Part shown: positions 3,777 through 32,000 of the stretch, one piece after another | How the letters are laid out: every line of letters starts with the position of its first letter | How positions within the stretch are numbered: position 1 is the stretch's first letter | NCBI RefSeq assembly: GCF_037902255.1 | Contig: NZ_CP147990.1 | Span: forward strand, 4,440,001-4,472,000 | Source of the DNA: Candidatus Electrothrix sp. GW3-4 | GTDB taxonomy: Bacteria > Desulfobacterota > Desulfobulbia > Desulfobulbales > Desulfobulbaceae | Length of the DNA stretch: 32,000 nt | Reading direction: 5' to 3' | Translations under genes and position numbers: made by a program | Notes under the pieces: model-generated | What the model was told of the DNA's origin: nothing | Seen by the model: the letters and a program-made list of their open reading frames with translations, nothing else | Databases searched by the model: none

Positions 3777-4805
3777 TTAAGAAAATTTTCTTAAGCAAGT
3801 TATCACGTTGAGCAGAAAATCAGCATGTTGGCCTATATCGTATTCAGTCTCAACCTTTAATCGTCCCTTCTTTCCCATAATTTTACGTTTATCAGAAGCT
3901 GTAGATAGAAAGGCAATTGCATTTGCCCAGCCATCTTCTGAATCTGGCAGCAAACCATCCTTGCTATGCTCAATAATATCACATAACACCCCTACTGGAC
4001 TGGCTATTACCGGGATGCCCATTGCCATGTATTCCAGTGCTTTAAATCCACATTTGTTTTCATTAAACGCATTGGGTAAAATCGGATATAGCCCAATATC
4101 AAAATCCGCAAGCTGGTTTCTAACAGCCTCAGAATCTCCCCAGGGAATCTGGTCGATAAGTTCCGCTTCAACTCCGGCAATATTTGAAAACGCATTATAC
4201 AGCCTTCTGTCCCCGCATGCGCCCACCAGTTTGAACCGCACCTGCTGGGCCGCCCCGACCTGTTGAAGCGGCCCGGAAAGAATTTTAATCAGATCCTCGG
4301 CATAATGGGGACCATTCCCGATCCAGCCTAAACAAACAGTCTTTCCCGGTGCTTTTTTCTCCAGTGGTGCGTAATTTTCCAGTTTTACACAGGTAGGCAG
4401 ATAAAACGCATTTTCAATATATTCTTTGGCATATCCCAACAAGGGTTGGCTGCCAGCTATGACTGCTGATGCATTTGCCATCATTTTACCGGCGTTTTTC
4501 AAAGTTACCGGACTGTTGATCCGGGACGGAGCATCATCCAGATCAAAAATGGTGATTTTGCCGAGACTGTTGGCCAGACCCATCAGGCGGACATGCCATT
4601 TGGAAGCATTTTTCTGGAAAAAAATCACATCATGGAATGGTATTTTTTTCAGGATTTTCAGCAGTGCCTGTCGCCCGCCCCCGGCAATTATGGTGCATTT
4701 AATGCCCCGCTTTTCCAGCTCCTCGGCCATCCAGTACCCCCGCACTCGGGAGCTGGCCTTGGTCCGGTCGCCCAGCAGACAGAAGAGGATTTTTAATTGC
4801 GGCAT
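3777..4805 (-). CDS. Glycosyltransferase, GT-B fold, family 1 (GT4-like), copy B with a divergent C-terminus
   Basis: 342-aa ORF. It is near-identical to copy A through about residue 280. The last ~60 aa are unrelated in sequence (LLPDSEDGWANAIAFLSTASDKRK... versus FLAGAEKDWNEFIYRLVAQEELLK...). Confidence 0.85.
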   Translation of the reverse strand: MPQLKILFCLLGDRTKASSRVRGYWMAEELEKRGIKCTIIAGGGRQALLKILKKIPFHDVIFFQKNASKWHVRLMGLANSLGKITIFDLDDAPSRINSPVTLKNAGKMMANASAVIAGSQPLLGYAKEYIENAFYLPTCVKLENYAPLEKKAPGKTVCLGWIGNGPHYAEDLIKILSGPLQQVGAAQQVRFKLVGACGDRRLYNAFSNIAGVEAELIDQIPWGDSEAVRNQLADFDIGLYPILPNAFNENKCGFKALEYMAMGIPVIASPVGVLCDIIEHSKDGLLPDSEDGWANAIAFLSTASDKRKIMGKKGRLKVETEYDIGQHADFLLNVITCLRKFS

Positions 4806-5379: not shown

Positions 5380-5952
5380 CCTCGACTTCCAGTCGAGCAT
5401 TTTCAAAACATAATGCGGGAGAAATTATTGACAAAATCGTATCGATAATGCACGATGCGATGCTATGAAACAATACAGCAGAGGTTCTCACACCACGTAT
5501 CATCATCGATATCATATTGTGTGGATTACGAAATACCGATACAAATTGCTTCGCGGTGCTCTTCAGCAGCGAGTGCGGGAGATTGTTGCTCAGGTTGCGG
5601 AAGAGTTCGGCGTCCATATTGTCAACGGTGTTGTATCGTCCGATCATGTACATATTTTCGTTTCCATCCCGCCCCATGTAAGAGAAAGCGACCTGGTGAA
5701 AGTAATGAAGGGTCGAAGTTCCCGGAAAGTCCAACAGGAGTTCCCGGAGTTGAGGAAACGCTATTGGGGGCGGCATTTTTGGGCGCGAGGATATTTCAGT
5801 GTGACCAGCGGCAATGTGACTGACGAAATGATCGACGAATATATTAACAATCATGCTGATGCTCATAATCGTAACGATGCTGAAAATATATCTTTAGAGT
5901 GAGCGCGACTTCCAGTCAGATAACAAATCTACCGACTTCAGTCGGTAGTGGT
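5380..5952 (+). mobile_element. IS200/IS605-family element (tnpA only) nested in ISL3. Boundaries are approximate, about +/-10 nt.
   Basis: Subterminal hairpins sit at 5381-5397 (CTCGACTTCCAGTCGAG) and 5929-5948 (CTACCGACTTCAGTCGGTAG). A third CGACTTCCAGTC copy lies at 5905-5916. The element encodes a Y1 HUH transposase. The boundaries were chosen as the interval whose removal restores the ISL3 frame. Confidence 0.75.
5465..5902 (+). CDS. tnpA: IS200-type Y1 (HUH) transposase TnpA
   Basis: 145 aa. It carries YHHRYHIVWITKYRYKLL, DHVHIFVSIPP (the HUH motif) and WARGYFSVTSG (the catalytic Tyr region), a canonical IS200 TnpA layout. Confidence 0.92.
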   Translation: MKQYSRGSHTTYHHRYHIVWITKYRYKLLRGALQQRVREIVAQVAEEFGVHIVNGVVSSDHVHIFVSIPPHVRESDLVKVMKGRSSRKVQQEFPELRKRYWGRHFWARGYFSVTSGNVTDEMIDEYINNHADAHNRNDAENISLE

Positions 5953-6819
5953 TTCAATGAGATCATCACGTTGATCATCTTTAAGTTTATGGGCATTGCG
6001 AAGAAGATTGAAGCGTTGTCCCTTGATGAACTGCTTATCTTCTGTATTCGCGTTGCGCCACTCGGCACGCCGTACCTCGTCGATGGCAGTATTGAGGTTG
6101 CTGACAATGTGGAATTTATCAAAAATAATTTGAGCCGTTGGGGCATACTGCTGAATAACGCTTTTATATGAACCGGCCCGGTCGATGCCCACAGCCTTAA
6201 TTTTCTCGATTTGTTGTGGGGACAGTTTCTGAAAGAATGACTCTAATGAAGTCTTTTTCTTTCCCTCTGCCAGATGAAGGACTTCGCCGGTTTCTCCGTT
6301 GATGACGACAGTCATGTACTGATGACCAGCCCCTATGGATTTTTCATCGACCAAGATGATACCCAAATGGTCCAGATCTGGGGCTGGCAGGCACTGAGTA
6401 AGTATCTGTTTATCCCATCTCCTGGCTGTACTTGCTGAGATAGGGAGAAAATGCGGGATCTTGTCTGCTGCCATAAAACGGCACAATCTGCAAACATAAT
6501 GCATGAGTCGCCGGGTTGCATGAGCGGAGTTGTCAATCCCCGGTGGGTGCAGTGTAAAATAACACTTACAGGAGCTGCAATACCCTTGCAGAGCTTCGTA
6601 GAGAATTTGCACTAACTTCACTGGCCCTATGGGCAGATCGTATGCACTTTGTATGACCGTTCTATTCAAACCTGATTTTCGGGAACAGCAGGGGCAGTAA
6701 ATATTGCGTCTTCTGTCCTGACGGAGTTTGACAACTGCAAGAGCCGATGTTACGTGGATGTGTTCAATGATCCAACCAGGAAAGTCGTATACATAACGGA
6801 ACAAGGGGTGACTGGTCAT
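5953..6819 (-). pseudogene. ISL3 transposase, N-terminal part (interrupted)
   Basis: It has an N-terminal Cys-rich zinc-finger region (CPCCSRKSG...CSSCKCYF), then ILVDEKSIGAGHQYMTVV and AVGIDRAGSY, typical of ISL3 transposases. The reading frame is broken by the IS200 insertion. Confidence 0.85.
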
Positions 6820-6974
6820 AACAGAAATCCTCCATATCGAGTAACCTGGACAATTAATTGTTATGGTAACACTTTTTGTCAGTCATTCCCCTATAATTTT
6901 CTGCAACTATGACAAAGAGCCTTAAATATTTTCTCACGTTTTTGGGTGAGCACCCGTTTTGAAAAACAAAGGTA

Positions 6975-7025
6975 TCCTAACGCGGGCTTTGCCCGCAACC
7001 CAATGACTGTAGAAGTAGAGCCGTT
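6975..7025. repeat. Hairpin-containing short repeat, copy 1
   Basis: ACGCGGGCTTTGCCCGCAACCCAATGACTGTAGAAGTA. GCGGGC-TTT-GCCCGC forms a perfect 6-bp GC stem (6982-6996). A 16-nt exact match (6989-7004) is found in inverted orientation at 22583-22598. Confidence 0.7.
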
Positions 7026-7036
7026 TCTCATGTAAA

Positions 7037-8539
7037 ATGAAAGTATCCCAACAACTTTCCAGATACAAAAAGGAACGACTCATGAAAGCATTAATAGACA
7101 GGTTCTCCAGTTCAGTCAAGGGCGTACTCTCAGGATTTGATCGTATTGTTTTCAAAGGATGGCTTCTGCCCCTGATGTTCGCCTCCCAGGTAATGAGCTT
7201 TCTCAGTTTTAAAGGCGTACTCAACAAAGACTATAAAAACTGGATGATTGCCCAAACAAGAGAGATAGTCAACACTGCGGACCAATATGCCCGTGATAAC
7301 TGTGGATCTCCCATTATCAAGATTCCGACATGGCGTATTCGAAAAGAAGAACTTGCCCATAAACGCCAACAGCAGGAACAGATTAAAACCGGACTGATCG
7401 GCGTCTGGTCCTGTATGGAAAGTGCCTCATCTTACCGGGCTGTGTATTGCAAACAGGCGGGTTTCCCGCAAATCAAAAATTATCAAACCCAATGTAAGCA
7501 TCTGTATTTTTACTTTGATGACAGAGAGTTCGGTTTTATGAACATACGGTTGCAGACCTGGTTTCCCTACCATATCCAGATGTGCCTCAACGGTCGTAAA
7601 TGGCTGCGCCGGGGACTTGAACAGGAAGGTATTGACTTTCATGTTCACGGAAACAAGTTTCTCCATATTGCCGATTACCAAAAAGCGCAACAACTGCTCG
7701 ACCAACAGCTGAACATCCGTTTTACAGGTATACTTGACGGCTTTACGCAACGAGTTTTTCCCGGAATGGAAGATATTCTCGGACCACATTTTTCGTATTA
7801 TTGGACCTTATGGCAGAGCGAATGGGCCACGGATCTTATTTTCTACAACCCCGATTCCATAAAAGATCGTATGGATACTTTGTTGCGGCACGCCCATATA
7901 ATCGGGACAAGCACTCGCGTCCTGCGTTATCTTGATCGACCTCTGACCAAAGCCGGTCGCCCTGATGGCCGTTCTCATGATACTGTTATGACTCGCCTCA
8001 CGGATTTCAACGACGGTATGTGTATTCGCCACTGGAATGATAAGAATTCTGTTAAATTGTACAATGAGCAGAATAATGTCCGAGTGGAAACAACCATCAA
8101 TGATCCCAGAAAATTTAAAGTATTTCGCCACAAACAGGGTCAGGATGAAAACGAACCGAAGCAACGATTGCCCATGCGCAAAGGCGTAATGGATATACCG
8201 TTGCGGGCATCGGTTTCTCAGGATGTCAACAATCGCTTTATGGAGGATCTTGCGACGCTGGAGGAGAAGACTCCGATTCGTTCGTTTCTTGACGATTTGA
8301 CTGTTCATATAATGAAAAACGGTCGTCGTTTTCGTGGCCTTGATCCGGTCGGTAAGGACCAGGAGCTACTTCTTGCTTTGTCCGATCCCGCATACATGGT
8401 TTCCGGTCTAACCAACAAAATGCTTCGGGAGCGGTTGTCGACTACTCCTTTTGGCTCCAGTTGCACGGACAAACAGTTATCAGCCAAAATAAGTCGTCAC
8501 CTTCGACTGTTGAGGAGTCACGGAATTATCCGAAAACTT
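7037..8539 (+). pseudogene. Large ORF of the unclassified element, 5' portion, interrupted by IS3
   Basis: The 501-aa ORF ends artificially at the IS3 junction. A more likely start is the ATG at 7082, preceded by AAAGGAA. No transposase motif is recognisable by eye. Confidence 0.7.
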
Positions 8540-8654
8540 TAAAGTGGACCCCATCGTCAACACAAAATTTGGCATAATTTAAGATAGATTTTGGGCTAAC
8601 AACAAACTCGCTTATCTGATGATTTTCTCCTCTATTTGACTGAAGTGTATCTCT

Positions 8655-9492
8655 TCAGGAATAATGAATATCTTCAGGGAACCTGTACCCCAAAGACTGA
8701 TGAGGCCGCCGAGTATTATAAAAAGAAAAATATTCTTCCAGACCGTGGTGTAACTCACTGCCGTTTTGGTAGTCTTTCAGATAGATATTTTCATGCTTTA
8801 CCGTCCGCCAAAGACGCTCAACAAAAATATTATCCAGCGCCCGTCCCTTGCCGTCCATGCTGATTTGCACATCAACATCTGTCAGGCGTTGTGTAAACTG
8901 CCTGCTCGTAAACTGCACCCCCTGATCTGTGTTGAAAATGTCGGGTAATCCTTGAGTTAACGCTTCGTCAAGAGCCTCAAGGCAAAAGTCATTATCCATC
9001 GTATTGGATATGCGCCAGCTCAGGATGTAGCGGCTGTACCAGTCAATAATTGCCGTCAGGTACATGAAACCGTCCTGCATCGGAATATACGTGATATCGG
9101 TGCTCCAGACCTGATTGGGACGATCAATCAAGATGTTCCTCAAGAGGTAAGGATAGACCTTATGTTCACTATTCCGTTGCGTTAGCTTCGGCTTAGGATA
9201 AATTGCCTCAATCCCCATGAGGCGCATTAACCGTTGAACCCGTTTTCTGTTTACGTGAAAAGAACGTCGTTCCAGCTCAATGACCATCCGTCTGCTTCCG
9301 TAAAAAGGGCAGTCCGTGTAGATCTCGTCGATAATTCGCATCAATTTGAGGTTCAGCTCGCTTTCAACCGCAGGCTTGTAGTAGTAGCGGGATCGGCTGA
9401 TGCCGAGTAGCTCACATTGCTTCTGGATGCTAATCGACTTGTGCTGAGAGTCAATTAAATCAAGGGGATCCGAAAAGGACTCAGACTTTTTT
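8655..9492 (-). CDS. IS3-family transposase OrfB (rve integrase core), expressed as an OrfAB fusion by -1 frameshifting
   Basis: WSTDITYIP...LTAIIDWYSR...FNTDQGVQFTS...ERLWRTVKHE is the DDE (rve) pattern. The frame is open upstream of the first Met (9344), back to the A9 run. Confidence 0.85.
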
Positions 9493-9759
9493 TTTCAGCC
9501 AGTCCAGCTCCATTTTCAGGCGACCGATTTCCTCGTATAAGCGTTTTTCAGCTTTACTGGAGTCCTCTTTGGCTCTACCGCGCTTTTTGCTGAATATTTC
9601 GGTCACTCCTTCTTTGAGCTGCTTTTTCCAGGTGCTTATCTGGTTTGGTTGAATCTCGTACTGGGAGGCTAATACATTGATTGGCTTCAATTCTTTCAAT
9701 GCTTCAAGGGCAACTTTTCCTTTGAATGCTGCTGAGTGAACTCTTCTTTTTCGTGACAT
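9481..9759 (-). CDS. IS3-family transposase OrfA (HTH / leucine zipper)
   Basis: 92 aa. It ends in an A9 slippery run (9487-9495, T9 on the plus strand), typical of a -1 frameshift site. Confidence 0.85.
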   Translation of the reverse strand: MSRKRRVHSAAFKGKVALEALKELKPINVLASQYEIQPNQISTWKKQLKEGVTEIFSKKRGRAKEDSSKAEKRLYEEIGRLKMELDWLKKKV

Positions 9760-9883
9760 GCTTATGCTCTCCGGTAGTGGGCTGTATGAATCTCGAACTC
9801 GTTACCGAGCATCCAAAATACATTCAGCATTTTTTGAAAAAAATCTACCTTAAATGCCTGTCCTAAAAGATGGGTCCATTATA

Positions 9884-9994
9884 CTTCCCCGGCAGAATAG
9901 ATATCAGGTGACCACCAGGGGGATGCGGTTGACCAATGCCCTGAATGCATTGTTAGCGGCATCCATTGAGAATCTTTTAAAAATCGCCGCTTGA
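9884..9994 (+). pseudogene. Large ORF of the unclassified element, 3' portion (displaced by IS3)
   Basis: It encodes LPRQNRYQVTTRGMRLTNALNALLAASIENLLKIAA*, identical to the C-terminus of the uninterrupted copy (31127..). Confidence 0.8.
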
Positions 9995-10182
9995 TTTTCT
10001 TGTTTTTTATAGCAGGAGTTGAGGGGTAAGGCACTAAACAAAGCATATAATTGCCCGCAGTGAATATGGGCTTATGGTTCAAATCCTTGCAGGCTTCATC
10101 ACTTATTTGTTGCTTGCAATCTAACCGGACACTACTGCAAAAACTAATTTTTTTTACGATAACCCATGTTAACCCGAACGCC

Positions 10183-11226
10183 TCAAATACAATCCCAGAG
10201 AAGCGGAGTACCCCGTTTGACATCCCGACAAATTTGCTTGCCCAGAATCAACTCCAGACACTTAGGTGGCAAACCATGCCCTGGCCGGATGGTCCGGATA
10301 TTATCTTTGGTCAACACATCCCCTGCCTTCAAGTCCTTTGTGATGTAGAGAGAGCGGCGAAACATCCGTGATTTTTCTTCAGACTGTGTGGTGCCATAGG
10401 TTATCTTTCCCAGCGACTGCCAAGCTCGTTCGGTTTCAGTCACCAACTGCGCCATCTCTGCGGGTTCCAGTGAAAAGGTACTGTCCACTCCGCCATCAGC
10501 CCGGTTGAGGGTAAAGTGTTTTTCTATGACAGTAGCACCCAAGGCAATGCTTGCCACGGACACCCCGACACCCATAGTATGATCGGACAACCCCACTTCA
10601 CAGTCGAACAGTTCCCGCATATGGGGGATGGTCAGAATGTTGGTATTGTCGGCAGTGGCCGGATAGGTGCTAGTGCATTTGAGCAAAACCAAGTCGTTGC
10701 AGCCAGCCTCGCGGGCGGCGCGGACCGTTTCATCAAGTTCAGCAATGGTGGCCATGCCCGTGGAAATGATCAATGGTTTGCCGGTTGCGGCAACTCGCCG
10801 GATTAGCGGCAGATCTGTGTTTTCAAACGAGGCGATTTTGTAGCACGGCACATCCAAATTTTCCAGAAAATCAACAGCAGTTTCATCAAACGGTGTGCTG
10901 AATGGAATGATCCCCAGTTCCCGAGCACGGTCGAAAATGGGGCTGTGCCATTCCCAGGGAGTATATGCCTCGCCATACAGTTCATATAAGGATTTCCCTG
11001 CCCACAAGCTGTCAGGATCGCTGATGTGAAACTCCCCCTCATTCAAATCCAGCGTCATGGTATCCGGCGTGTATGTCTGGATTTTCAGCCCGTGAGCCCC
11101 AGCTTTGGCGGCAGCCTCTACAATTTCAAGTGCCCGGTCAAGGGATTGATTGTGGTTGCCGGACATTTCAGCGATGATGAAAGGCTTTTCGGTGTGGCCT
11201 ATTTTGCGGTTACCTATTGTGATCAT
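10183..11226 (-). CDS. pseI: Pseudaminic acid synthase (NeuB family, C-terminal SAF domain)
   Basis: 347 aa. The N-terminus IGNRKIGHTEKPFIIAEMSGNHNQSLDRALEIVEAAAKAGAHGLKIQTY is typical of NeuB/PseI. It is the last gene of the pseB-pseI operon. Confidence 0.85.
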   Translation of the reverse strand: MITIGNRKIGHTEKPFIIAEMSGNHNQSLDRALEIVEAAAKAGAHGLKIQTYTPDTMTLDLNEGEFHISDPDSLWAGKSLYELYGEAYTPWEWHSPIFDRARELGIIPFSTPFDETAVDFLENLDVPCYKIASFENTDLPLIRRVAATGKPLIISTGMATIAELDETVRAAREAGCNDLVLLKCTSTYPATADNTNILTIPHMRELFDCEVGLSDHTMGVGVSVASIALGATVIEKHFTLNRADGGVDSTFSLEPAEMAQLVTETERAWQSLGKITYGTTQSEEKSRMFRRSLYITKDLKAGDVLTKDNIRTIRPGHGLPPKCLELILGKQICRDVKRGTPLLWDCI

Positions 11227-18440: not shown

Positions 18441-18451
18441 TATCCACTAAT

Positions 18452-18510
18452 AAAGGGTGTTGAAAAGTACCCCTGCATAGAGCAATTTCAGTTGTCCGAG
18501 ATGCTCAATA
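18452..18510. repeat. 59-bp direct duplicate of the left terminus of the adjacent IS (18511..)
   Basis: AAAGGGTGTTGAAAAGTACCCCTGCATAGAGCAATTTCAGTTGTCCGAGATGCTCAATA occurs at 18452-18510. It occurs again at 18511-18524 plus 20081-20125 (the nested IS and one copy of its 5-bp TSD lie between). Confidence 0.85.
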
Positions 18511-18524
18511 AAAGGGTGTTGAAA

Positions 18525-20075
18525 CTCGACTATCAAGTTTTTTGAGCCTTTTTCGGGGTTCGTCTAACAATGGCAAGCTCTGTAGGATAATGAAGGCGTT
18601 GCCTCCAGTCTTCCGAGATCCCGCCCACTCATATGTTTGCTGGAAGGAACAAGCTGAAAAAACTCTTTGACTTTTTTGCCTAACTTTTCAAGCTGTTTTC
18701 CGGCATTGTCCTGCTGAAGCAGAAACTGGATAAATTCAAGCAATCCTTCCATTTGAGTTCTTCGTCGTAGGCTGCCTACGGTAAACGCAGGTAGTTTGTT
18801 ATCTATGCGGGCTGCTTGCTCTGGATGAAGAAGGAGGCAGTGGTCGAACAGTAGACTCAGAATCAGGCTTCGGCTTGATCCCTTCTCGTCAAACTGTCGG
18901 GCCTCCTGCCCCCAACCCTCGTAAAGCTTCCAGTCCTCAAAGAAAACCTCCACAAGCCATCTCAAGGTGTAGGCTCGAATAATATCCTCTGTTCGCCAGC
19001 TCATATCAGTGGCAACGAGATAACGGTAGTTCTTTTCATCTTCATATTTAACAGCAATAACAAAGCGTTTTTTACCATGCGCTTTAACATGGAGGCGAGC
19101 ACTGGCCACAGTCATTGTGATTTCTTCACCGCCCCGGACACGCACTTTACGTATTGTCCCTTTGCAGGTTACATTAAAAAAATCAGACAGATTCTTCTTT
19201 CGCCCTCGGTAATATATAATTTGGTTGGAATGAAGCTGACTTATAACCTGGCTTGTACCGAGTATGCTGCACCCCTTATCCATGAAATCACCGGTTCCGT
19301 ACAAGGCATCGGCCAGCAGGCATTGTACAGAGATTTCCGTATGATTTTGTTTGAATTCTTTAAGCAGCTCCAGTGCCAGGCTCTGTTTTGTCGGATATTC
19401 CGGATCAGGATCGGGGCTCACTGGTCTTTTCTCCTTTGGAACCCCTTTCTTGCGAAGTTTTTTATCCTCTTTCTTCCAGGCAGTTTGAACAGGGTCGGGC
19501 ATATAGAATTTGAAACCAACCGGAAAAGTAATGCTGTCCGTCACCAGAAGTAAGAGAACAACAGTTTGGCCATTAACGTAACCACCTGTTTTCTTATCTT
19601 TCTGTTTGTATGCCTTATGGATCCTTTTTGTTTTTTTACAACGGGCCCGGTCCAGCTCATCCAACACAGCAATGCCTTCTTTTATATCGTATTGTCGCAA
19701 AACAAGCTTGACACTTGCGATCAGCAGATGATCCCAGAATATTTTGCCGTGACGAAACATCCACGAAAGAGCGGCTTTTTTATATCCGCCAAAACCGGCA
19801 CGTTCAAAGCTCGCCCAGTTTATAGAGTTCATCATCAATATGCCGAAGATACAAAATGATAGCCATTTTCTCTGAATACGGGAAAGTCCGGCTTCAGGGT
19901 CATGTTTTTTCAAACTGCTGTCAAGCTCATCGACAAATGTTTTAATAAATGCAGGGGAATCGTGAAGTATGATAAGGCAATGTCATGTAAAAAGTTAATG
20001 GGATAAATGAAGAAATCCATCAACTATAACAGTTCATGCCCAACGTTGCCTAACTTTAAAAACTTGATAGTCGAG
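18525..20075 (-). mobile_element. IS4/IS701-like insertion sequence (1551 bp) nested in the terminal repeat of the 18511..21932 element
   Basis: Perfect 18-bp inverted repeats CTCGACTATCAAGTTTTT at 18525 and, as reverse complement, ending at 20075. The 5-bp TSD TGAAA lies at 18520-18524 and 20076-20080. Removing the element restores the host IS terminal repeat. Confidence 0.85.
18564..19913 (-). CDS. DDE transposase, IS4/IS701-like
   Basis: 449 aa. Candidate catalytic segments are AVLDELDRARCKK, CLLADALYG and RWLVEVFFEDWK (Y/R..E..K type). A short upstream ORF in another frame, separated at an A6 run (about 19914-19925), may be a frameshifted N-terminus. Confidence 0.7.
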   Translation of the reverse strand: MKKHDPEAGLSRIQRKWLSFCIFGILMMNSINWASFERAGFGGYKKAALSWMFRHGKIFWDHLLIASVKLVLRQYDIKEGIAVLDELDRARCKKTKRIHKAYKQKDKKTGGYVNGQTVVLLLLVTDSITFPVGFKFYMPDPVQTAWKKEDKKLRKKGVPKEKRPVSPDPDPEYPTKQSLALELLKEFKQNHTEISVQCLLADALYGTGDFMDKGCSILGTSQVISQLHSNQIIYYRGRKKNLSDFFNVTCKGTIRKVRVRGGEEITMTVASARLHVKAHGKKRFVIAVKYEDEKNYRYLVATDMSWRTEDIIRAYTLRWLVEVFFEDWKLYEGWGQEARQFDEKGSSRSLILSLLFDHCLLLHPEQAARIDNKLPAFTVGSLRRRTQMEGLLEFIQFLLQQDNAGKQLEKLGKKVKEFFQLVPSSKHMSGRDLGRLEATPSLSYRACHC

Positions 20076-20317
20076 TGAAAAGTACCCCTGCATAGAGCAA
20101 TTTCAGTTGTCCGAGATGCTCAATAAGCATTTTTTTCGTTTGTTAGTGTCACTGCAATCTGATGTCGAGCACTTTCCAGGCGGAATTCAACCTTTTTCAA
20201 AAAGCCACTATGGGCAAGGCTCTATTTTTGGACAAGCCGACTGTCAGAAACAGCAAAAATGAACAAACGGGTATTTTTGTAGCTGTAATAATTTAGATTA
20301 TTGTTTTGGTCCTTCTG

Positions 20318-21817
20318 CTATGCTGCCATTTTGAAGAGTGGCAGTTGCGGTGACTTTTTAGCAGGTATTTTTTTGCGGGTTCCTATCATTTTCAACAATA
20401 ACAAGGAAATACTGCTGAGCGTACATCGAGCTGTGATCGCGGACTGACCGCGAACCCGAACGGTTTCAAGGCCGGTTTGATGTTTTAACAGGTTGAAAGG
20501 TCGTTCAGAATTTTTGCGAATATCGTGTGCCTCCTGTATCTGCTCGACATGGTAAGGTATTCGCTGGAAAAAGCCTCTGTCTAACGGTATGCATCGACAT
20601 TGCAGACAGCTTCCTTTGAGAAGACATTCACCTGTATTTGCAGCACATTTATACTCGTGATGATTCCCTTCGACGCCTGCATACTCCATAGGAACAGAAC
20701 ATTCATCATGGCAGAAAACAGTGCCTTTGACAGCATCAACATTATCCGGTGTAGATACTGTAGAACAGGGTGGAGTTGTCACGTATACACCTGTTTTATT
20801 GTACAATGATCCGTCATTGTCATGATAGGCGGTATCGGCGGTGATGAGTTTCATCTTAACCCCCATAGCCTGCGCCACATCGACCAAAAGCGAAAGAAAG
20901 TGACTATCATGGTGGTTTGCCGGTGCAAGCAAAGATATGATCGGAAAACTATGATCAGTTTCAGCGTCAATTGCAGTTAACGTATGCAGACGATAGCCGA
21001 CTACGTACACAGATTTGTCACGCTTGTTGCGTCGTTTTCCACAGTCGCTGTCGAGATCATTGTAAATGCGTATATTTTGACCATTGATATTCAATGAAGC
21101 CAGGGGGATTTTACATTCATTGGCCAGTTCGGTAGAGTCCACTCCGTGCAGGATATGGTCACCAAGCATCCCGGACTGCAAAAAATGATGCAAAATATAA
21201 ACCGTAATATTAATTTGTTGGACAAATGTGAGGGAATTACGGAATTTGCTAAGCTGAGTATGGTCGATCATTGTTTTTTCACGCAATGACAATCCGATAA
21301 AGGCGCGATTCTGTTTGCGGTCAAGGCCGAGGTATTCTTCATCACAGAATTTTCGGTAGCTGATTTCTGGATACTTGATCGTCTTGAGCAGTTCGGCACG
21401 GAACATGTTGTGAGGGAAAAAGTCCCGCATAGCAGGACTATAGCCGTCATAAGCTAACAGGCGATTGATAATTTCGTTGTCAAGCAGCTGGTCGATAAAC
21501 TGGAGCTCTTCATCTTTGATATATTTGGCGAAACGCCTTTCGCCAAAAAGCTTTATGATACTGTTATTTTTTGATTCATTGACAATATCGGCCATCTGAT
21601 CAAGGCTGATAATCCCCTTTGTCGGAACCTGTTGCTCCACGCCGAGCAGCTGATCTGGGGTGGCTGAAATATCCTGCTTGAAATCATACTCGCCCGCGAC
21701 CTGCGCGAGGACTTTTCGAGAGATTTCCTTTTTGGTCTTACGGTTCAGCCGGTTCCAATTAGGATAGTTTTCCTTAAGCTCTTTTTGTACGAGACGTTTG
21801 ATATTTTTATTATGCAT
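20318..21817 (-). CDS. DDE transposase, IS4/IS5/IS1182 superfamily
   Basis: 499 aa. TQLSKFRNSL (DUF772-like), YRLHTLTAID, LITADTAYH and RKNSERPFNLLK (the Y-R-E-K region). It has a Cys-rich insertion before the last motif. Confidence 0.75.
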   Translation of the reverse strand: MHNKNIKRLVQKELKENYPNWNRLNRKTKKEISRKVLAQVAGEYDFKQDISATPDQLLGVEQQVPTKGIISLDQMADIVNESKNNSIIKLFGERRFAKYIKDEELQFIDQLLDNEIINRLLAYDGYSPAMRDFFPHNMFRAELLKTIKYPEISYRKFCDEEYLGLDRKQNRAFIGLSLREKTMIDHTQLSKFRNSLTFVQQINITVYILHHFLQSGMLGDHILHGVDSTELANECKIPLASLNINGQNIRIYNDLDSDCGKRRNKRDKSVYVVGYRLHTLTAIDAETDHSFPIISLLAPANHHDSHFLSLLVDVAQAMGVKMKLITADTAYHDNDGSLYNKTGVYVTTPPCSTVSTPDNVDAVKGTVFCHDECSVPMEYAGVEGNHHEYKCAANTGECLLKGSCLQCRCIPLDRGFFQRIPYHVEQIQEAHDIRKNSERPFNLLKHQTGLETVRVRGQSAITARCTLSSISLLLLKMIGTRKKIPAKKSPQLPLFKMAA

Positions 21818-22101
21818 AATGCCTGAAATGGGTAACGAATTAACATTATTAACTTTTCGTCATTATACAGGGTTTTTTCGACTTAAGCAACTGTTTTTGT
21901 GTAATATTGAAGTGTTCTTTTCAACACCCTTTAATAGGAGTCTTCGGACATTTTTAGCCTTTCTGCAAACATTATTATCACTTTCAATGAATACATAACA
22001 ATTTATTATTCAATAATAAAATCTTACGCGCGATTATATTTAGCACATCTGAGTTTTAAGATATTTCAGACGAACATGATCAATAAAATATATTGACACT
22101 T

Positions 22102-23468: not shown

Positions 23469-25128
23469 GAGCATCCTCAAAAAGCTAACCTCTCATACAG
23501 GCAATACTGCAAGACTTGCCTTGGCATTTGTTCAAAGAACGCCAAAAATCGAGCGATAATATGATTCAGCTGGCTGCGTAAAAGTAAAAACCGTGAAAGA
23601 TATAAATTTTCAAGCTGTTCCTGCAACTTCCTGAGCAGAACCATCAGATTCATGACCAGGAAGATACAGTTGATCCATGCTTCAGAGGTTCTCTGAAGTT
23701 TTGCCCGGATGTAGTTGAGTCGGTAGCCGTTTTTTCCTTGGCCAAATTTCCCCTCAATGGGGATCCGTTCTCGACTATCCCGAATTCGTTGTGCTTTCAG
23801 TTCCCGAAGACGTTCTTTGTTTTCTTCTGTCTCTTTCGGGGACCTGCCCAATCGTTTACCACCAAATCGAATACCTTTCTCTTTGAGATATTTACGGTTT
23901 TCTCTTGTTCCGTAAATCTGATCAGCCAGTACGACTGCCGGATAGTAACCATTCCGGCGCTTGTAACTCTCCACTTGCTCACGCAAATCCGTGCCTTCGT
24001 TGAAGGCATCCCAACCAATATGATCGACAAAAGCCAAACCATCGACCATGCTCACGCTGAGTTTGGCACCGAACTCCACATTTTTACCTGCTTTCCCACG
24101 AACTATCGGTCGTACATGAGGTTGGGCAATGGAAACAATTCGGTCATCGCAGCGTCGTTTTCGTTTTTTATACATCTCATCCTGCTGGCGATACACATGC
24201 TGAATGATCCAATACTGTCGTTGTTGCTGATGGGGAAGTGGAAAAGGTGCCGTTTCAACATTGTCAAGCAACTCATCAATATATCGCAGATTTCTTCGGA
24301 TGTACTGTAATTGCTGCCGAAGTCCGCGCCGCAGAATTTTTCGGCCTGGTTTCTTTTTCTTAGCCAGATTCAGGTAGTTTTTACGGGCAAGTCTCCGATA
24401 TGTTCTGGGCTTTTTGGCGTAGTCACTCTGTTTGTACAGATCATCAATCAGCTGCTCGGAAATCTCACGAGCTTCGTTGAGTAAACTCAGATCAGTCGGG
24501 TAACGAATCGCTTGCTCAGCAACCGTTGCATCGACAAGCATTTTTCCCTTATTTTCAACGGGCTCTTCCTGACTCTCATCCTCTTTTTCGTCTTCATTTG
24601 CCGTACTTTTCTTTGAGAGAGCAAGTTTTTCCAAAATCACTTCTTCAAAAGCAGAAAAGACATCTTTTCCCATGCGCTTGCGAATTTCAACAAACAGGCT
24701 GGGAGCTAGAGGTCGCTTGTCTTGAAAACAAGAAAATCCAACAAAATATTGAAGATAGGGATTCTCCTGGATCTGAAGTACGGTTTCTTCATCACTGAGC
24801 GTCAACTTGTGCTTAATGATTAACGCGCCGATCACCAATCTGGCATCTTTGGCTGGTCGTCCTTGATGCGGGTCCAAAGTTCGATAATATCTGATGGCGA
24901 ACTCATCCCACGGAATAACTTTATGCCATTTGATCCATCTGTTTTCAGGGTTCAGTTTACCTCCAAACGGAAGGCTGAATCCTTCAAGTGTAAGCTGTCT
25001 GTCACTGGTGTACCTGATCATGTGCATGCCTTATGAGGGGGTGAACGTCAAAAACATGCATATTTTACAATATTTTTACAACTTTTTCATTTAAAATCAG
25101 CGCACTGAGGCTTTTTAAGGGCAATCTA
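23469..25128 (-). mobile_element. IS5-family insertion sequence, full copy (about 1.66 kb)
   Basis: ATCTAAATA is present at both junctions (23460-23468 and 25124-25132). The TSD is either 9 bp (IS = 23469-25123) or 4 bp AATA (IS = 23469-25128). Comparison with the remnant at 2286 favours an end at ...GGGCAATCTA. Imperfect inverted repeats lie around CCTYAAAAAGC. Confidence 0.85.
23477..25027 (-). CDS. IS5-family transposase (DUF772 N-terminal domain plus DDE)
   Basis: 516 aa. GRPAKDARLVIGALIIKHKLTLSDEETVLQIQENPYLQYFVGF is the InsH-type N-terminal domain. The ORF runs to within 8 nt of the IS end. Confidence 0.85.
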   Translation of the reverse strand: MHMIRYTSDRQLTLEGFSLPFGGKLNPENRWIKWHKVIPWDEFAIRYYRTLDPHQGRPAKDARLVIGALIIKHKLTLSDEETVLQIQENPYLQYFVGFSCFQDKRPLAPSLFVEIRKRMGKDVFSAFEEVILEKLALSKKSTANEDEKEDESQEEPVENKGKMLVDATVAEQAIRYPTDLSLLNEAREISEQLIDDLYKQSDYAKKPRTYRRLARKNYLNLAKKKKPGRKILRRGLRQQLQYIRRNLRYIDELLDNVETAPFPLPHQQQRQYWIIQHVYRQQDEMYKKRKRRCDDRIVSIAQPHVRPIVRGKAGKNVEFGAKLSVSMVDGLAFVDHIGWDAFNEGTDLREQVESYKRRNGYYPAVVLADQIYGTRENRKYLKEKGIRFGGKRLGRSPKETEENKERLRELKAQRIRDSRERIPIEGKFGQGKNGYRLNYIRAKLQRTSEAWINCIFLVMNLMVLLRKLQEQLENLYLSRFLLLRSQLNHIIARFLAFFEQMPRQVLQYCLYERLAF

Positions 25129-29249: not shown

Positions 29250-29792
29250 TTATGTCAGCTCAGTACTTATCACGCTAATATCATCGGACAACGTTTCAAA
29301 ACGCCCTATATAATCAACTAGCAATCGCCTATTCTTTTTACCATCAGCTAAATAGTCCATTTGAAGTGGGGGAGCATTATTTATATGCCATTTTAAAAAT
29401 GAATTAAATTCCATTTTTATAACAGCCTGATGGTGAAGGTGATTTTTGGATTGAAGAAGATAAAAATAAAGGCTTACAAGTAAATCAAATGGATTCTTTA
29501 CAAAAACAAATTTAAAATATGAATGAAATTTGTTATCTCCAAACTTTTGCTTAACCTCATAGGCTGTTGAATGCTTATGATAACCTGTGAATTGTTTCAT
29601 CCCATCATTGTGCCAATTCATCATGTTAACAATTTTCCATAAAATCCGCCTCGAAATTTTATAATCATAAGCCAGTCTATCAATATTTCGGCAATAGGGT
29701 AGCAATTCCCCCCCTGACCGAACTTCCAGCCGTTTTAGGTATATGGATAAAATGAATTTTATTTCGTGAGATATCAGTATGTTACATATCAC
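29250..29792 (-). CDS. Sulfotransferase-like protein (Sulfotransfer_2-type C-terminal region), possibly 5'-truncated or a pseudogene
   Basis: 180-aa ORF with a GTG start. FKFVFVKNPFDLLVSLY resembles the f.fVRNP.dRlvS 3'-phosphate-binding motif but lacks both arginines. No N-terminal HIPKtgGTS-type PAPS loop is present. A 356-nt ORF-free stretch lies upstream. Confidence 0.35.
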   Translation of the reverse strand: MICNILISHEIKFILSIYLKRLEVRSGGELLPYCRNIDRLAYDYKISRRILWKIVNMMNWHNDGMKQFTGYHKHSTAYEVKQKFGDNKFHSYFKFVFVKNPFDLLVSLYFYLLQSKNHLHHQAVIKMEFNSFLKWHINNAPPLQMDYLADGKKNRRLLVDYIGRFETLSDDISVISTELT

Positions 29793-30148: not shown

Positions 30149-31081
30149 TTAGTAACGACACCATAACTTAGTTAACCTTCTCCTCAATGCTAAACATACA
30201 GAATACACAAAGCTAGCAAAATTACTCGGCAACATGAGAACAATAAACGTCATAAAATTGAACACATTATGTCTGAAAAGCCATTTTGCATGTATCTTCG
30301 TACGGCACGCCTCCTTATTGAGCAAAAAACCTTTAATAAGACGCATACGCACATCGATTCCCAATCCAAATTTATCATAAACCTGGATATTCCGTTCTAA
30401 AAGGGTTAAATTATCAACTGCTTGCTTTCTGCTTAGAGCGTTTCGTCCAGATTCACTACGATTCCACCTGTAGATAATTCGATTTACATACACCCCCTGA
30501 ATTTCTTTGCCGAACACCCGTGTCCAGAAATCTACATCCTCCCTCTGACTAATAACAAGTCCTTCGTCATAACCGCCCACTTGTTTCCACGTAGATTTCC
30601 TGCATGGTGACATACCAAGCATTATCCATTCCGACAAACAAGCCCGATAATTCATCTGTCTATTGTCGTTGCAGACAACCGAGCAATTGACATGTTCGTA
30701 CTTACCGTTATCATGAATTATTTCATAGTCACCGAATAGATACCCGACCCCATCATTTTGGGCAAAAGCTGACTTGACTTCAAAAACTGTTTCAGTAGGC
30801 AATTCATCGTCACCATCCAACGGGATACAAATCTCGCCCACCATAGCCTGATACCCTGCATTACGAGCTGCAGCAGGTCCAAGGTTTTCAGGCAGCCATA
30901 TAACCCGAACACCTTCTTGGGCCTCAAAATTCTTACAGATTTCAACGGTCTCATAGTGCTCTGAATAGTCCTTAACAATGAGAGTTTCAAAATCCTGATC
31001 AGTTTGGGAAGCCAAGCTCTCCATGGCTCGTTTAAGCTTAGCTCCCTCATTGAAACAGGTGATGATTACAGTAACTTTCAT
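30149..31081 (-). CDS. Family 2 glycosyltransferase (GT-A fold) with a C-terminal hydrophobic helix
   Basis: MKVTVIITCFNEGAKLKRAMESLASQTDQDFETLIVKDYS ... PLDGDDE (the DxD motif). I place the start at the ATG at 31081. The TTG at 31102 used by the ORF track lies inside the repeat element. Confidence 0.85.
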   Translation of the reverse strand: MKVTVIITCFNEGAKLKRAMESLASQTDQDFETLIVKDYSEHYETVEICKNFEAQEGVRVIWLPENLGPAAARNAGYQAMVGEICIPLDGDDELPTETVFEVKSAFAQNDGVGYLFGDYEIIHDNGKYEHVNCSVVCNDNRQMNYRACLSEWIMLGMSPCRKSTWKQVGGYDEGLVISQREDVDFWTRVFGKEIQGVYVNRIIYRWNRSESGRNALSRKQAVDNLTLLERNIQVYDKFGLGIDVRMRLIKGFLLNKEACRTKIHAKWLFRHNVFNFMTFIVLMLPSNFASFVYSVCLALRRRLTKLWCRY

Positions 31082-31082
31082 A

Positions 31083-32000
31083 TTTAGTGCCTTACCCCTC
31101 AACTCCTGCTATAAAAAACAAGAAAATCAAGCGGCGATTTTTAAAAGATTTTCAATGGATGCCGCTAACAACGCATTCAGGGCATTGGTCAACCGCATCC
31201 CCCTGGTGGTCACCTGATATCTATTCTGCCGGGGAAGTTTTCGGATAATTCCGTGACTTCTCAACAGTCGAAGGTGACGACTTATTTTGGCTGATAACTG
31301 TTTGTCCGTGCGACTGGAGCCAAAAGGAGTACTCGACAACCGCTCCCGAAGCATTTTGTTGGTTAGACCGGAAACCATGTATGCGGGATCGGACAAAGCA
31401 AGAAGTAGCTCCTGGTCCTTACCGACCGGATCAAGGCCACGAAAACGACGACCGTTTTTCGTTATATGAACAGTCAAATCGTCAAGAAACGAACGAATCG
31501 GAGTCTTCTCCTCCAGCGTCGCAAGATCCTCCATAAAGCGATTGTTGACATCCTGAGAAACCGATGCCCGCAACGGTATATCCATTACGCCTTTGCGCAT
31601 GGGCAATCGTTGCTTCGGTTCGTTTTCATCCTGACCCTGTTTGTGGCGAAATACTTTAAATTTTCTGGGATCATTGATGGTTGTTTCCACTCGGACATTA
31701 TTCTGCTCATTGTACAATTTAACAGAATTCTTATCATTCCAGTGGCGAATACACATACCGTCGTTGAAATCCGTGAGGCGAGTCATAACAGTATCATGAG
31801 AACGGCCATCAGGGCGACCGGCTTTGGTCAGAGGTCGATCAAGATAACGCAGGACGCGAGTGCTTGTCCCGATTATATGGGCGTGCCGCAACAAAGTATC
31901 CATACGATCTTTTATGGAATCGGGGTTGTAGAAAATAAGATCCGTGGCCCATTCGCTCTGCCATAAGGTCCAATAATACGAAAAATGTGGTCCGAGAATA
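31083..32000 (-). mobile_element. Unclassified repeat element, copy 2 (uninterrupted, runs off the window)
   Basis: The reverse complement matches copy 1 (7780-8539 plus 9884-10038) with only a few substitutions. It shows the empty IS3 target site. The end is defined by divergence from copy 1 after ...GGCACTAAA. Confidence 0.8.
31127..32000 (-). CDS. Large ORF of the unclassified element (C-terminal ~290 aa visible, 5' end outside the window)
   Basis: The frame is open from 32000 to the stop at 31127 (checked: ...ILGPHFSYYWTLWQSEWATDLIFYNPDSIKDRMDTLL...). The C-terminal ISRHLRLLRSHGIIRKLPRQNRYQVTTRGMRL looks like a winged-helix DNA-binding segment. Confidence 0.8.
   Translation of the reverse strand, partial: ILGPHFSYYWTLWQSEWATDLIFYNPDSIKDRMDTLLRHAHIIGTSTRVLRYLDRPLTKAGRPDGRSHDTVMTRLTDFNDGMCIRHWNDKNSVKLYNEQNNVRVETTINDPRKFKVFRHKQGQDENEPKQRLPMRKGVMDIPLRASVSQDVNNRFMEDLATLEEKTPIRSFLDDLTVHITKNGRRFRGLDPVGKDQELLLALSDPAYMVSGLTNKMLRERLSSTPFGSSRTDKQLSAKISRHLRLLRSHGIIRKLPRQNRYQVTTRGMRLTNALNALLAASIENLLKIAA

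Follow-up and report, generated by a model that had tools for sequence, protein, structure and literature searches.

Background

Insertion sequences (IS) of the IS91 family generate no target duplication and have two functionally distinct ends, of which the one downstream of tnpA, oriIS, adjoins the target tetranucleotide, while the other, terIS, carries a single subterminal palindrome beside a cleavage tetranucleotide that is the same as or near the target (i.e. CTCG versus CTTG) (PMC13181058). Members of this family form single- and double-stranded circles with an oriIS-terIS junction, and it is one specific single-stranded circle that inserts (PMC13181058). Here we report on a single-gene element with a unit size of about 1.71 kb, two copies of which lie in a stretch of 32,000 nucleotides (nt) from Candidatus Electrothrix sp. 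GW3-4 (the whole stretch that was analysed is referred to below as the window). The two ends of the element are laid out in the manner of IS91, and we consider it probable that it is an autonomous IS of a previously unclassified, very widespread family, the sole gene of which encodes the transposase.

The element had been noticed before by a reader of the window that had only the letters and the open reading frames (ORFs) to go by (the sequence-only reading), and had been described as a recently mobile, multi-copy unit of possibly a new IS family. No established transposase family was indeed matched: the family is new relative to Pfam, NCBIfam, PDB, PHROGs, PADLOC and the literature searched, and the transposase that it would encode is without a detectable relative. 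A literature search on the end motifs, on CTAA-specific elements without inverted repeats and on ISNCY/ISDol1 did not turn up a description of the family. What goes beyond the earlier account are the highly structured ends, the specificity for CTAA and the IS91-like layout.

Results and discussion

A mobile unit that inserts beside a single CTAA

The ends of the element were defined from about 80 independent end junctions, dozens of which came from the multi-copy proteins P0077, P0083, P0368, P0033 and P0299, and from one empty site. Copies within one genome lie between unrelated flanks (loci L004 and L005, 98% identical over 1722 nt; L006 and L007, 100% identical over 1719 nt), and identical proteins were found on up to 17 contigs with differing flanks. 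Identical or near-identical copies in unrelated flanks recur in several genomes and metagenomes, and an empty site matches its occupied counterpart, which bears out the proposed recent mobility. The alternative that the sequence-only reading had named, a larger segmental duplication, was tested on the same relatives, which fix the boundaries of the unit, as the stretches of identity measure 1719-1722 nt and sit in different flanks (in the window itself, the 5' flank of copy 2 lies beyond the edge).

In the subfamily of the window, the left end reads C(T/C)AA, one base, GCGGGC-loop-GCCCGC and then AACCCAAT, and the right end runs from the stop codon through TTTTCTTGTTTTTTAT, about 16 variable bases and GTAAGG(C/T)A to the target CTAA, i.e. 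it follows the pattern TTCTTGTT...GTAAGGYA with CTAA adjoining. The left tetranucleotide, in 38 distinct junctions, is CTAA (23), CCAA (14) or TCAA (1). On the right, CTAA is the adjacent tetranucleotide in 36 of about 41 genuine junctions. In three of the other five (CCAA twice, TTAA once) the left-end hairpin of another element comes next, and the remaining two have CTAT. The left-end hairpin is present in every lineage, with compensatory variants of its stem (GTGGGC/GCCCAC, GCGGGT/ACCCGC, GCGGCC/GGCCGC and a longer GCCGCGGGAC/GTCCCGCGGC), and is followed by a CAACCCA that is invariant in alignment A3 and by CAACCAAA in distant subfamilies. From the stop codon to the end of the element there are 39 nt (43 nt with the target CTAA) in nearly all of 16 lineages compared, within which TTGTT and TAAG are conserved. 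The earlier failure to see terminal inverted repeats or a target duplication in the window holds across the roughly 80 junctions from relatives; neither was a target duplication present at the empty site, nor was a consistent repeat common to the left and right ends found.

The empty site (L091), of a kind that had been proposed as a check, was found by a gapped pattern search of JGI metagenomes and comes from the same Baltic Sea project as the occupied alleles. It reads ...gatatcttaaacaat-CTAA-agttatttaattttaatgc... and holds a single CTAA (...aaacaat-CTAA-agttattt...), and its flanks are matched base for base by the occupied alleles, ...gatatcttaaacaat-CCAAAGCGGGC...GTAAGGCA-CTAA-agttatttaatttt... 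Copies of the P0033 lineage, in turn, were seen in at least six different flanks, and all of them have CCAA at the left and CTAA at the right. It follows from these two observations that the left tetranucleotide is carried by the element, and a 4-bp CTAA target duplication, which we had considered, is ruled out by them. Insertion takes place directly 5' of one target CTAA, without any duplication.

Both the ends and the core change with the protein. The P0368 subfamily (36% identical) has CACAG-C-GCGGCC-GAT-GGCCGC-AACCAAAT on the left and ...GTTAGTAT directly followed by CACAG on the right, and the right end of the P0299 subfamily is ...TTAGTGGT directly followed by ACAG. Since they differ with protein lineage in this way, ends and core co-evolve with the protein. 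In the P0368 and P0299 subfamilies (L064, L084), the motif TTTCTTGT(T)n that is conserved at the right end in the window subfamily (9995-10010) is found reverse-complemented, as (A)nACAAGAAA, so that, judged from sequence, a putative binding site would be inverted between the subfamilies. Some lineages have a longer left non-coding region, of 270-525 nt versus about 105 nt (L015, 1751-2115; L016, 2476-3001; L024, 2657-2931), and no small second ORF is conserved in the lineages with such long 5' regions.

About one-fifth of the right ends adjoin the left end of another copy through one tetranucleotide (L008, L009, L015, L024, L048, L049). These right-end-to-left-end junctions arose either by tandem insertion at a left end already in place or from circles.

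A 5' hairpin over the start codon

For 21 elements that cover all sampled subfamilies, secondary structure was predicted from the 72 nt preceding the start codon. The minimum-free-energy fold is a long 5' hairpin in all 21 of these diverse elements (z-scores -2.0 to -9.3), in whose closing stem an upstream segment pairs with the Shine-Dalgarno region and, in most elements, also with the AUG. The arms of this hairpin are wholly different between lineages and compensatory pairs are seen, while a TAnnAT box (TATAAT, TACAAT, TAAAAT and similar) lies in the loop of most elements. A terminator was not found in the left end, and Rfam gave no match within 6800-10300.

Both IS10 and IS200 employ the same logic of silencing read-through, in the case of IS200 by means of a ribosome-binding site that is sequestered in a stem-loop. 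Transcripts that read into the present element would likewise be translationally silent, the 5' hairpin burying the ribosome-binding site and the AUG, and a transcript of the element's own that starts inside the loop, where the -10-like box lies, could escape the translational block.

A protein without a recognisable transposase signature

For the window protein, Pfam gave no match at E<=1 and NCBIfam only a marginal ArsR-type match. When 60 diverse members were compared one by one with Pfam and NCBIfam (E<=0.1), no transposase or recombinase was recovered, the only matches being to winged-helix families (HVO_A0261_N in 28/60, HTH_45 in 11/60 and Sso10a in 9/60). PDB searches with the single sequence and with a profile returned only winged helices of the MarR/PhiH1 type (E 0.02 for the family profile versus a MarR structure), and PHROGs and PADLOC likewise yielded winged-helix matches only. 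Foldseek matched HlyU, MarR and ArsR structures with a probability of 0.9-0.96. These scores, weak but all in agreement, speak weakly for the winged-helix-like C-terminus (about 80 residues) that had been described from the letters, and for which profile, Pfam/NCBIfam and Foldseek matches are now at hand.

The full-length AlphaFold2 model, built from a 128-sequence alignment, has a predicted local distance difference test score (pLDDT) of 89.6 and a predicted template modelling score (pTM) of 0.74. Residues 1-400 modelled alone reach a pLDDT of 92.6 and a pTM of 0.89, and hence behave as one compact module, which in the model is beta-rich, with unusually long strands (12-27, 104-123, 128-147 and 240-254), a four-strand meander (302-339) and a long helix (369-390). 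Foldseek against PDB and BFVD returned no match at E<=1e-3, and the full-length model reached only winged helices. The best matches of the 1-400 model (E 0.067, query-normalised TM-score <=0.17) are to AdoMetDC, ACT domains and biotin ligase, and were discarded as noise on account of these values. The structure prediction and Foldseek comparison that had been suggested as a check thus matched no RNase-H-like or other nuclease fold, and the absence of a recognisable transposase signature stands for Pfam, NCBIfam, PDB, Foldseek (two models) and hhalign against an IS91-family transposase, all of which were blank.

The 128 sequences share 47 invariant columns, which include D20, R21, K88, E113, Y142, Y144, R156, Q158, N170, N191, Y239, Y240, E247, D251, H317, N322, K325, Y327, R334, E336, R349, R366, N383 and R385. 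Many of these residues follow an i/i+2 pattern on strands, which in terms of the model suggests an active surface on the sheet. Several known motifs were considered and, by eye, rejected: an HUH motif, because the H-A-H at 268-270 is not conserved; an HKD/PLD motif, because its spacing is wrong; and GIY-YIG, PD-(D/E)xK and a serine-recombinase N-terminus. An RNase-H-like reading (with E113 in a long strand, D198 behind a short one and E247/D251 in a strand further along) is possible on the order of secondary-structure elements alone, is without support from Foldseek and was set aside as well. The beta-rich module of some 400 residues would be the catalytic part, with a fold that is unmatched, and the winged helix probably reads the ends.

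Family size and spread

A word-indexed search recovered more than 5,400 clusters at 90% identity. At 50% identity, an exhaustive search gave 4,345 clusters with E<=1e-3, of which 408 reach E<=1e-30, and a length of 505-535 aa is common to nearly all full-length members. Most members reside on contigs of 1.6-3 kb, as is characteristic of a repeat at which assemblies break. The loci come from Desulfobacterota, Methylovulum, Hydrogenedentes, Kiritimatiellae, Lentisphaerae, Verrucomicrobia, Bacillota, Bacteroidales, Cytophagales, Saccharibacteria, Armatimonadia, Thermoanaerobaculia and Planctomycetes, and the groups covered also comprise Gammaproteobacteria, the PVC group, Bacteroidota, Acidobacteriota and Armatimonadota. 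Among the viral contigs of IMG/VR there were no relatives.

Distant homologues (23-30% identity) occur on plasmids of Paraburkholderia, Burkholderia, Rhodococcus and Mycobacterium, where they are annotated as 'ArsR family regulator' or 'hypothetical protein'. One of them, 30% identical and annotated as an ArsR regulator, lies on plasmid pOLGA1 of the cultured strain Paraburkholderia phytofirmans OLGA172 (L062, 4001-5560), with a possible right end ...CCTTAGCGA directly followed by CTAA at 39 nt after the stop codon; this homologue could serve as a tractable experimental system.

Comparison with described systems

The resemblance to IS91 and ISCR, which are rolling-circle transposons with an HUH-Y2 enzyme, is one of layout. 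The two ends of the element differ, terminal inverted repeats and target duplication are absent, the end downstream of the gene adjoins a specific tetranucleotide, a single subterminal palindrome lies at the upstream end beside CCAA/CTAA (the target being CTAA), and right-end-to-left-end junctions exist. In contrast, the protein has neither HUH/Y2 motifs nor a zinc-binding N-terminus, the right end is without a palindrome, and the target is CTAA or CACAG instead of GTTC/CTTG. The models Y2_Tnp, Zn_Tnp_IS91 and the NCBIfam models for IS91 were not matched, either by the window protein (E<=1) or by the 60 members (E<=0.1); hhalign of the family profile versus the ISCR1 transposase of pCTX-M3 gave a probability of 1.5%, and HUH structures were not among the top 50 matches of either Foldseek search of PDB. 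The element would work like the IS91 type and yet is outside the IS91 family.

With IS200/IS605, the HUH-Y1 family of single-strand 'peel and paste' elements, the element shares the lack of inverted repeats and duplication, insertion beside a tetra- or pentanucleotide, a subterminal hairpin that is conserved as a structure and a ribosome-binding site in a stem-loop. It differs from them in that Y1_Tnp is not matched, the protein is about four times larger, the hairpin is at one end only, and the target, in gene orientation, is 3' of the right end and not 5' of the left end. The DDE-type IS (e.g. the IS5 group, with its YTAR target) differ from it in having inverted repeats, a duplication and matches to DDE models, none of which the element shows. 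Rep_trans initiators and relaxases (non-HUH tyrosine nickases such as RepD) offer a precedent, in that a large beta-sheet bears their nucleophilic tyrosine and acidic metal site and an HUH motif is lacking; Rep_trans of Pfam was, however, not matched, and no such structure appeared in the top 50 of either Foldseek search of PDB.

A proposed mechanism

The IS91-like layout makes single-strand nicking, followed by a circular or rolling-circle intermediate, the most likely way in which the element moves. By this analogy the left end would be terIS-like and the right end, beside the target tetranucleotide, oriIS-like. More specifically, the protein would nick one strand at the boundary between the right end and CTAA and again before the left C(T/C)AA, reading the tetranucleotide together with the folded hairpin on single-stranded DNA, after which a new CTAA would receive the strand by way of a circular or rolling-circle intermediate. 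We put forward this route, i.e. nicking at the two tetranucleotide boundaries and such an intermediate, with a confidence that stays a little below even.

The winged helix would bind the TTCTTGTT / GTAAGG and AACCCAAT motifs. Y142 and Y144 are two residues apart on a strand and so face the same way, and these two, which would echo the paired tyrosines of Y2 enzymes, together with Y327 are candidate nucleophiles; D20, E113, E247, D251 and E336 are candidate metal ligands. The N-terminal module of 400 residues may then represent a new transposase class, namely a non-HUH, probably tyrosine- and metal-dependent single-strand nickase/transferase that would have converged on an IS91-style mechanism, guided by sequence and hairpin, without target duplication and with a tetranucleotide specificity that differs between lineages (CTAA, CCAA, CACAG), a suggestion that is tentative and to which we give slightly less than an equal chance of being right.

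Several observations weigh against an autonomous IS that moves in this manner. By sequence or structure searches no catalytic motif or fold could be assigned, and the transposase label consequently rests on context, namely on the protein being the product of the only gene and on its co-evolution with the ends. RNAalifold predicted not a single pair in 16 right ends, i.e. no conserved secondary structure, where oriIS of IS91 has a palindrome. The partners in the right-to-left junctions of L009 and L049 are different variants, and tandem insertions could explain such junctions. The copy number is low (2-3 per complete genome). The identical copies L006 and L007, from a Desulforhopalus metagenome-assembled genome (OY781976.1), occupy different chromosomal sites and have a common in-frame TAG at codon 96, which could reflect spread of a defective copy in trans, gene conversion or read-through of the stop codon. 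Finally, a strict promoter scan detected no sigma-70 promoter in the left end of the window copy, so that the internal promoter is one that we infer.

Alternative explanations

The strongest competitor, in our estimate an unlikely one, is a conservative site-specific recombinase that would cross over a double-stranded circle at a CTAA core in the manner of IS110/IS492 or of phage integrases, with no single-strand rolling circle involved. Such an enzyme would account for the same tetranucleotide being found at donor end and target, for the one tetranucleotide held by the possible circle junctions, for a core that varies with lineage and for the invariant Arg, His, Lys and Tyr residues, and the asymmetric ends without inverted repeats, the short donor/target core and the structured non-coding left end are likewise known from IS110/IS1111, a circle-forming family with a DEDD enzyme guided by a bridge RNA. 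The P0033 lineage is, however, always CCAA/CTAA and the empty site reads CTAA, whereas a staggered exchange over a mismatched core should mix the products; in IS110/IS1111 the core is identical on both sides. Moreover, the left hairpin covaries without its sequence being kept, suggesting that it is recognised as folded single-stranded DNA, and a translational lock accounts for the 5' structure. The searches point the same way: no match to integrase, resolvase or DEDD models of Pfam was found (DEDD_Tnp_IS110 and Transposase_20 included), Pfam, NCBIfam and Foldseek alike gave no match to Phage_integrase or Resolvase/Recombinase domains, Foldseek recovered no IS621, integrase or RuvC-like fold, and Rfam had no match.

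Less probable again is a non-autonomous element, in which the 521-aa product would merely travel along, as a regulator, as a retention factor or as a nuclease analogous to TnpB of IS200/IS605, and the ends would be processed in trans, e.g. by an HUH transposase encoded elsewhere. It would fit the lack of a catalytic signature, the winged helix as the only recognisable domain (with the PGAP annotation of one plasmid homologue as an ArsR-family regulator), the end layout, which is that of HUH-driven elements, and the spread of two identical copies with a common in-frame stop in one genome. Nevertheless, the element is a single-gene unit in very different phyla, and its ends follow the phylogeny of the protein up to and including the switch of the core from CTAA to CACAG, which a foreign enzyme would hardly explain. 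Strong conservation extends over about 400 residues beyond the winged helix, many polar positions being invariant, and no recurrent partner gene was seen in the flanks.

That the unit is not mobile at all, i.e. a paralogous regulator gene in a larger duplicated segment, or is a DDE-type IS with overlooked repeats or duplication, would suit two copies that bracket one gene cluster and a 5' flank of copy 2 that lies outside the window, but is highly improbable given unit boundaries that are sharp and identical in many genomes, the existence of an empty site, and the absence of inverted repeats, target duplication and a match to DDE models.

The copies in the window

A repeat search of the window gave two pairs of inverted arms, of 766 nt (7774-8539 / 31235-32000) and 156 nt (9883-10038 / 31083-31238), both 99% identical, so that the two copies do lie in opposite orientation, as the sequence-only reading had stated. 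Over the part in which they overlap, exact comparison counted 6 differences in 917 nt (99.3% identity), and the three amino-acid changes that had been read off as M/T, C/R and T/S are M411T, C461R and T454S, three in total. Copy 1 extends from 6977 to 10033 and is split at 8540-9882 by an IS3-family IS, which agrees with the interruption seen earlier: its ORFs on the minus strand (orfA 9481-9759, orfB 8655-9344) match HTH_Tnp_1 and rve, it is bounded by the terminal inverted repeats TAAAGTGGACCC / TATAATGGACCC, and it is flanked by a 4-bp duplication, ACTT (8536-8539 and 9883-9886).

Both outer limits had to be drawn in from the 6930-10038 that had been proposed, as the left end is at 6977 and CTAA 10034-10037 belongs to the target, base 10038 being equal between the copies by chance. 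The single gene was correctly recognised and the length of its product, given as about 520-536 aa, is now fixed at 521 aa: joining 7082..8539 and 9887..9994 restores an ORF of that length with its start at 7082, the upstream ATG at 7037 being discounted in view of homologues of 521 aa. The features are collected in Table 1.

Table 1. Parts of the element and of its two copies in the 32,000-nt window
Feature	Position	Strand	Remark
Left-end tetranucleotide CTAA	6977..6980	+	Target mimic borne by the element; CCAA in some lineages
Left-end subterminal hairpin GCGGGC-TTT-GCCCGC	6982..6996	+	One base inside the tetranucleotide
Motif AACCCAAT	6997..7004	+	Directly 3' of the hairpin
Long hairpin of the 5' untranslated region	7018..7081	+	Stem reaches the start codon; TAnnAT box (TAAAAT) in the loop
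ORF part 1, residues 1-486	7082..8539	+	Identical to P0122 / WGN25_19850
Foreign IS3-family insertion (8540-9882) and second ACTT (9883-9886)	8540..9886	-	Not element DNA
ORF part 2, residues 487-521, and stop codon	9887..9994	+	Completes the C-terminal winged helix
Right end	9995..10033	+	TTTTCTTGTTTTTTAT (9995-10010), variable spacer, GTAAGGCA (10026-10033)
Target CTAA of copy 1	10034..10037	+	Host DNA, adjoins the right end
Copy 2, 3' part	31088..32000	-	ORF from 32000 down to the stop codon at 31127-31129; right end 31088-31126; continues beyond the window
Target CTAA of copy 2	31084..31087	-	Followed by AT and the ATG (31081) of a family-2 glycosyltransferase gene

Split as it is by the IS3-family element, copy 1 is dead, and WGN25_19850 is its truncated product of 486 aa. 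WGN25_19960 (P0121) appears to be the product of copy 2, as it carries the same three changes. The genome has a third copy at another location, WGN25_09375, and the best protein match (P0001, 99% identical) is also from Ca. Electrothrix sp. GW3-4. At position 18 P0121 has Glu (G18E), where Gly is invariant in 128 family members and is kept by WGN25_09375; to go by this substitution, WGN25_09375 is possibly the sole active copy in the genome.

Surroundings of the two copies

Copy 1 lies in an IS-rich patch. About 160 bp to its left is a truncated transposase gene of the ISL3 family (5938-6819, minus strand; DDE_Tnp_ISL3, partial). Further away, the region 18447-21950 holds two DDE transposase genes on the minus strand (18564-19913 and 20318-21817; DDE_5 / DDE_Tnp_1), each followed by a perfect 51-nt repeat (18461-18511 and 20076-20126) that has an inverted partner at 21905-21950; these repeats are probably IS ends or a repeat resembling a miniature inverted-repeat transposable element. 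An IS5/IS1182-like transposase gene (23477-25027, minus strand; DUF772, DDE_Tnp_1_2) lies in a region of which 300 nt (24815-25114) are repeated at 1973-2272 with 91% identity, and the glycosyltransferase genes at 54-1079 and 3777-4805 are paralogous (repeats D2 and D3).

Between the inverted copies, both of which have their right end toward it, is a glycan-synthesis cluster of about 21 kb (10038-31083), with genes for NeuB (10183-11226), a sulfotransferase (29250-29792) and a family-2 glycosyltransferase (30149-31081). The right end of copy 2 (…GAGGGGTAAGGCA) stops 6 nt before the ATG of the latter gene, with only CTAA and AT in between (31081-31126, minus strand). A comparable arrangement is seen in L055-L057, where 5 nt separate the right end from the ATG of the gene for an adaptor of the resistance-nodulation-division type. 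The purine-rich right end may thus supply a ribosome-binding site to the downstream gene.

Conclusions

New classes of prokaryotic transposases are rare, and the present family is an abundant one for which the annotation is everywhere 'hypothetical protein' or 'ArsR regulator'. Metagenome assemblies are broken up by the element, into contigs of about 1.7 kb. Once it is recognised, mobile DNA can be better annotated and assemblies better interpreted. The enzyme is, furthermore, a possible tool, as it would be compact, would duplicate no target and would use a short site that varies by lineage. In the cable bacterium itself, one copy has replaced the sequence upstream of the start codon of a glycosyltransferase, and recombination between copies 1 and 2 would invert the glycan-synthesis cluster of about 21 kb that they enclose. 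If the protein is truly a non-HUH nickase, then IS91-like rolling-circle or single-strand transposition would have evolved at least twice.

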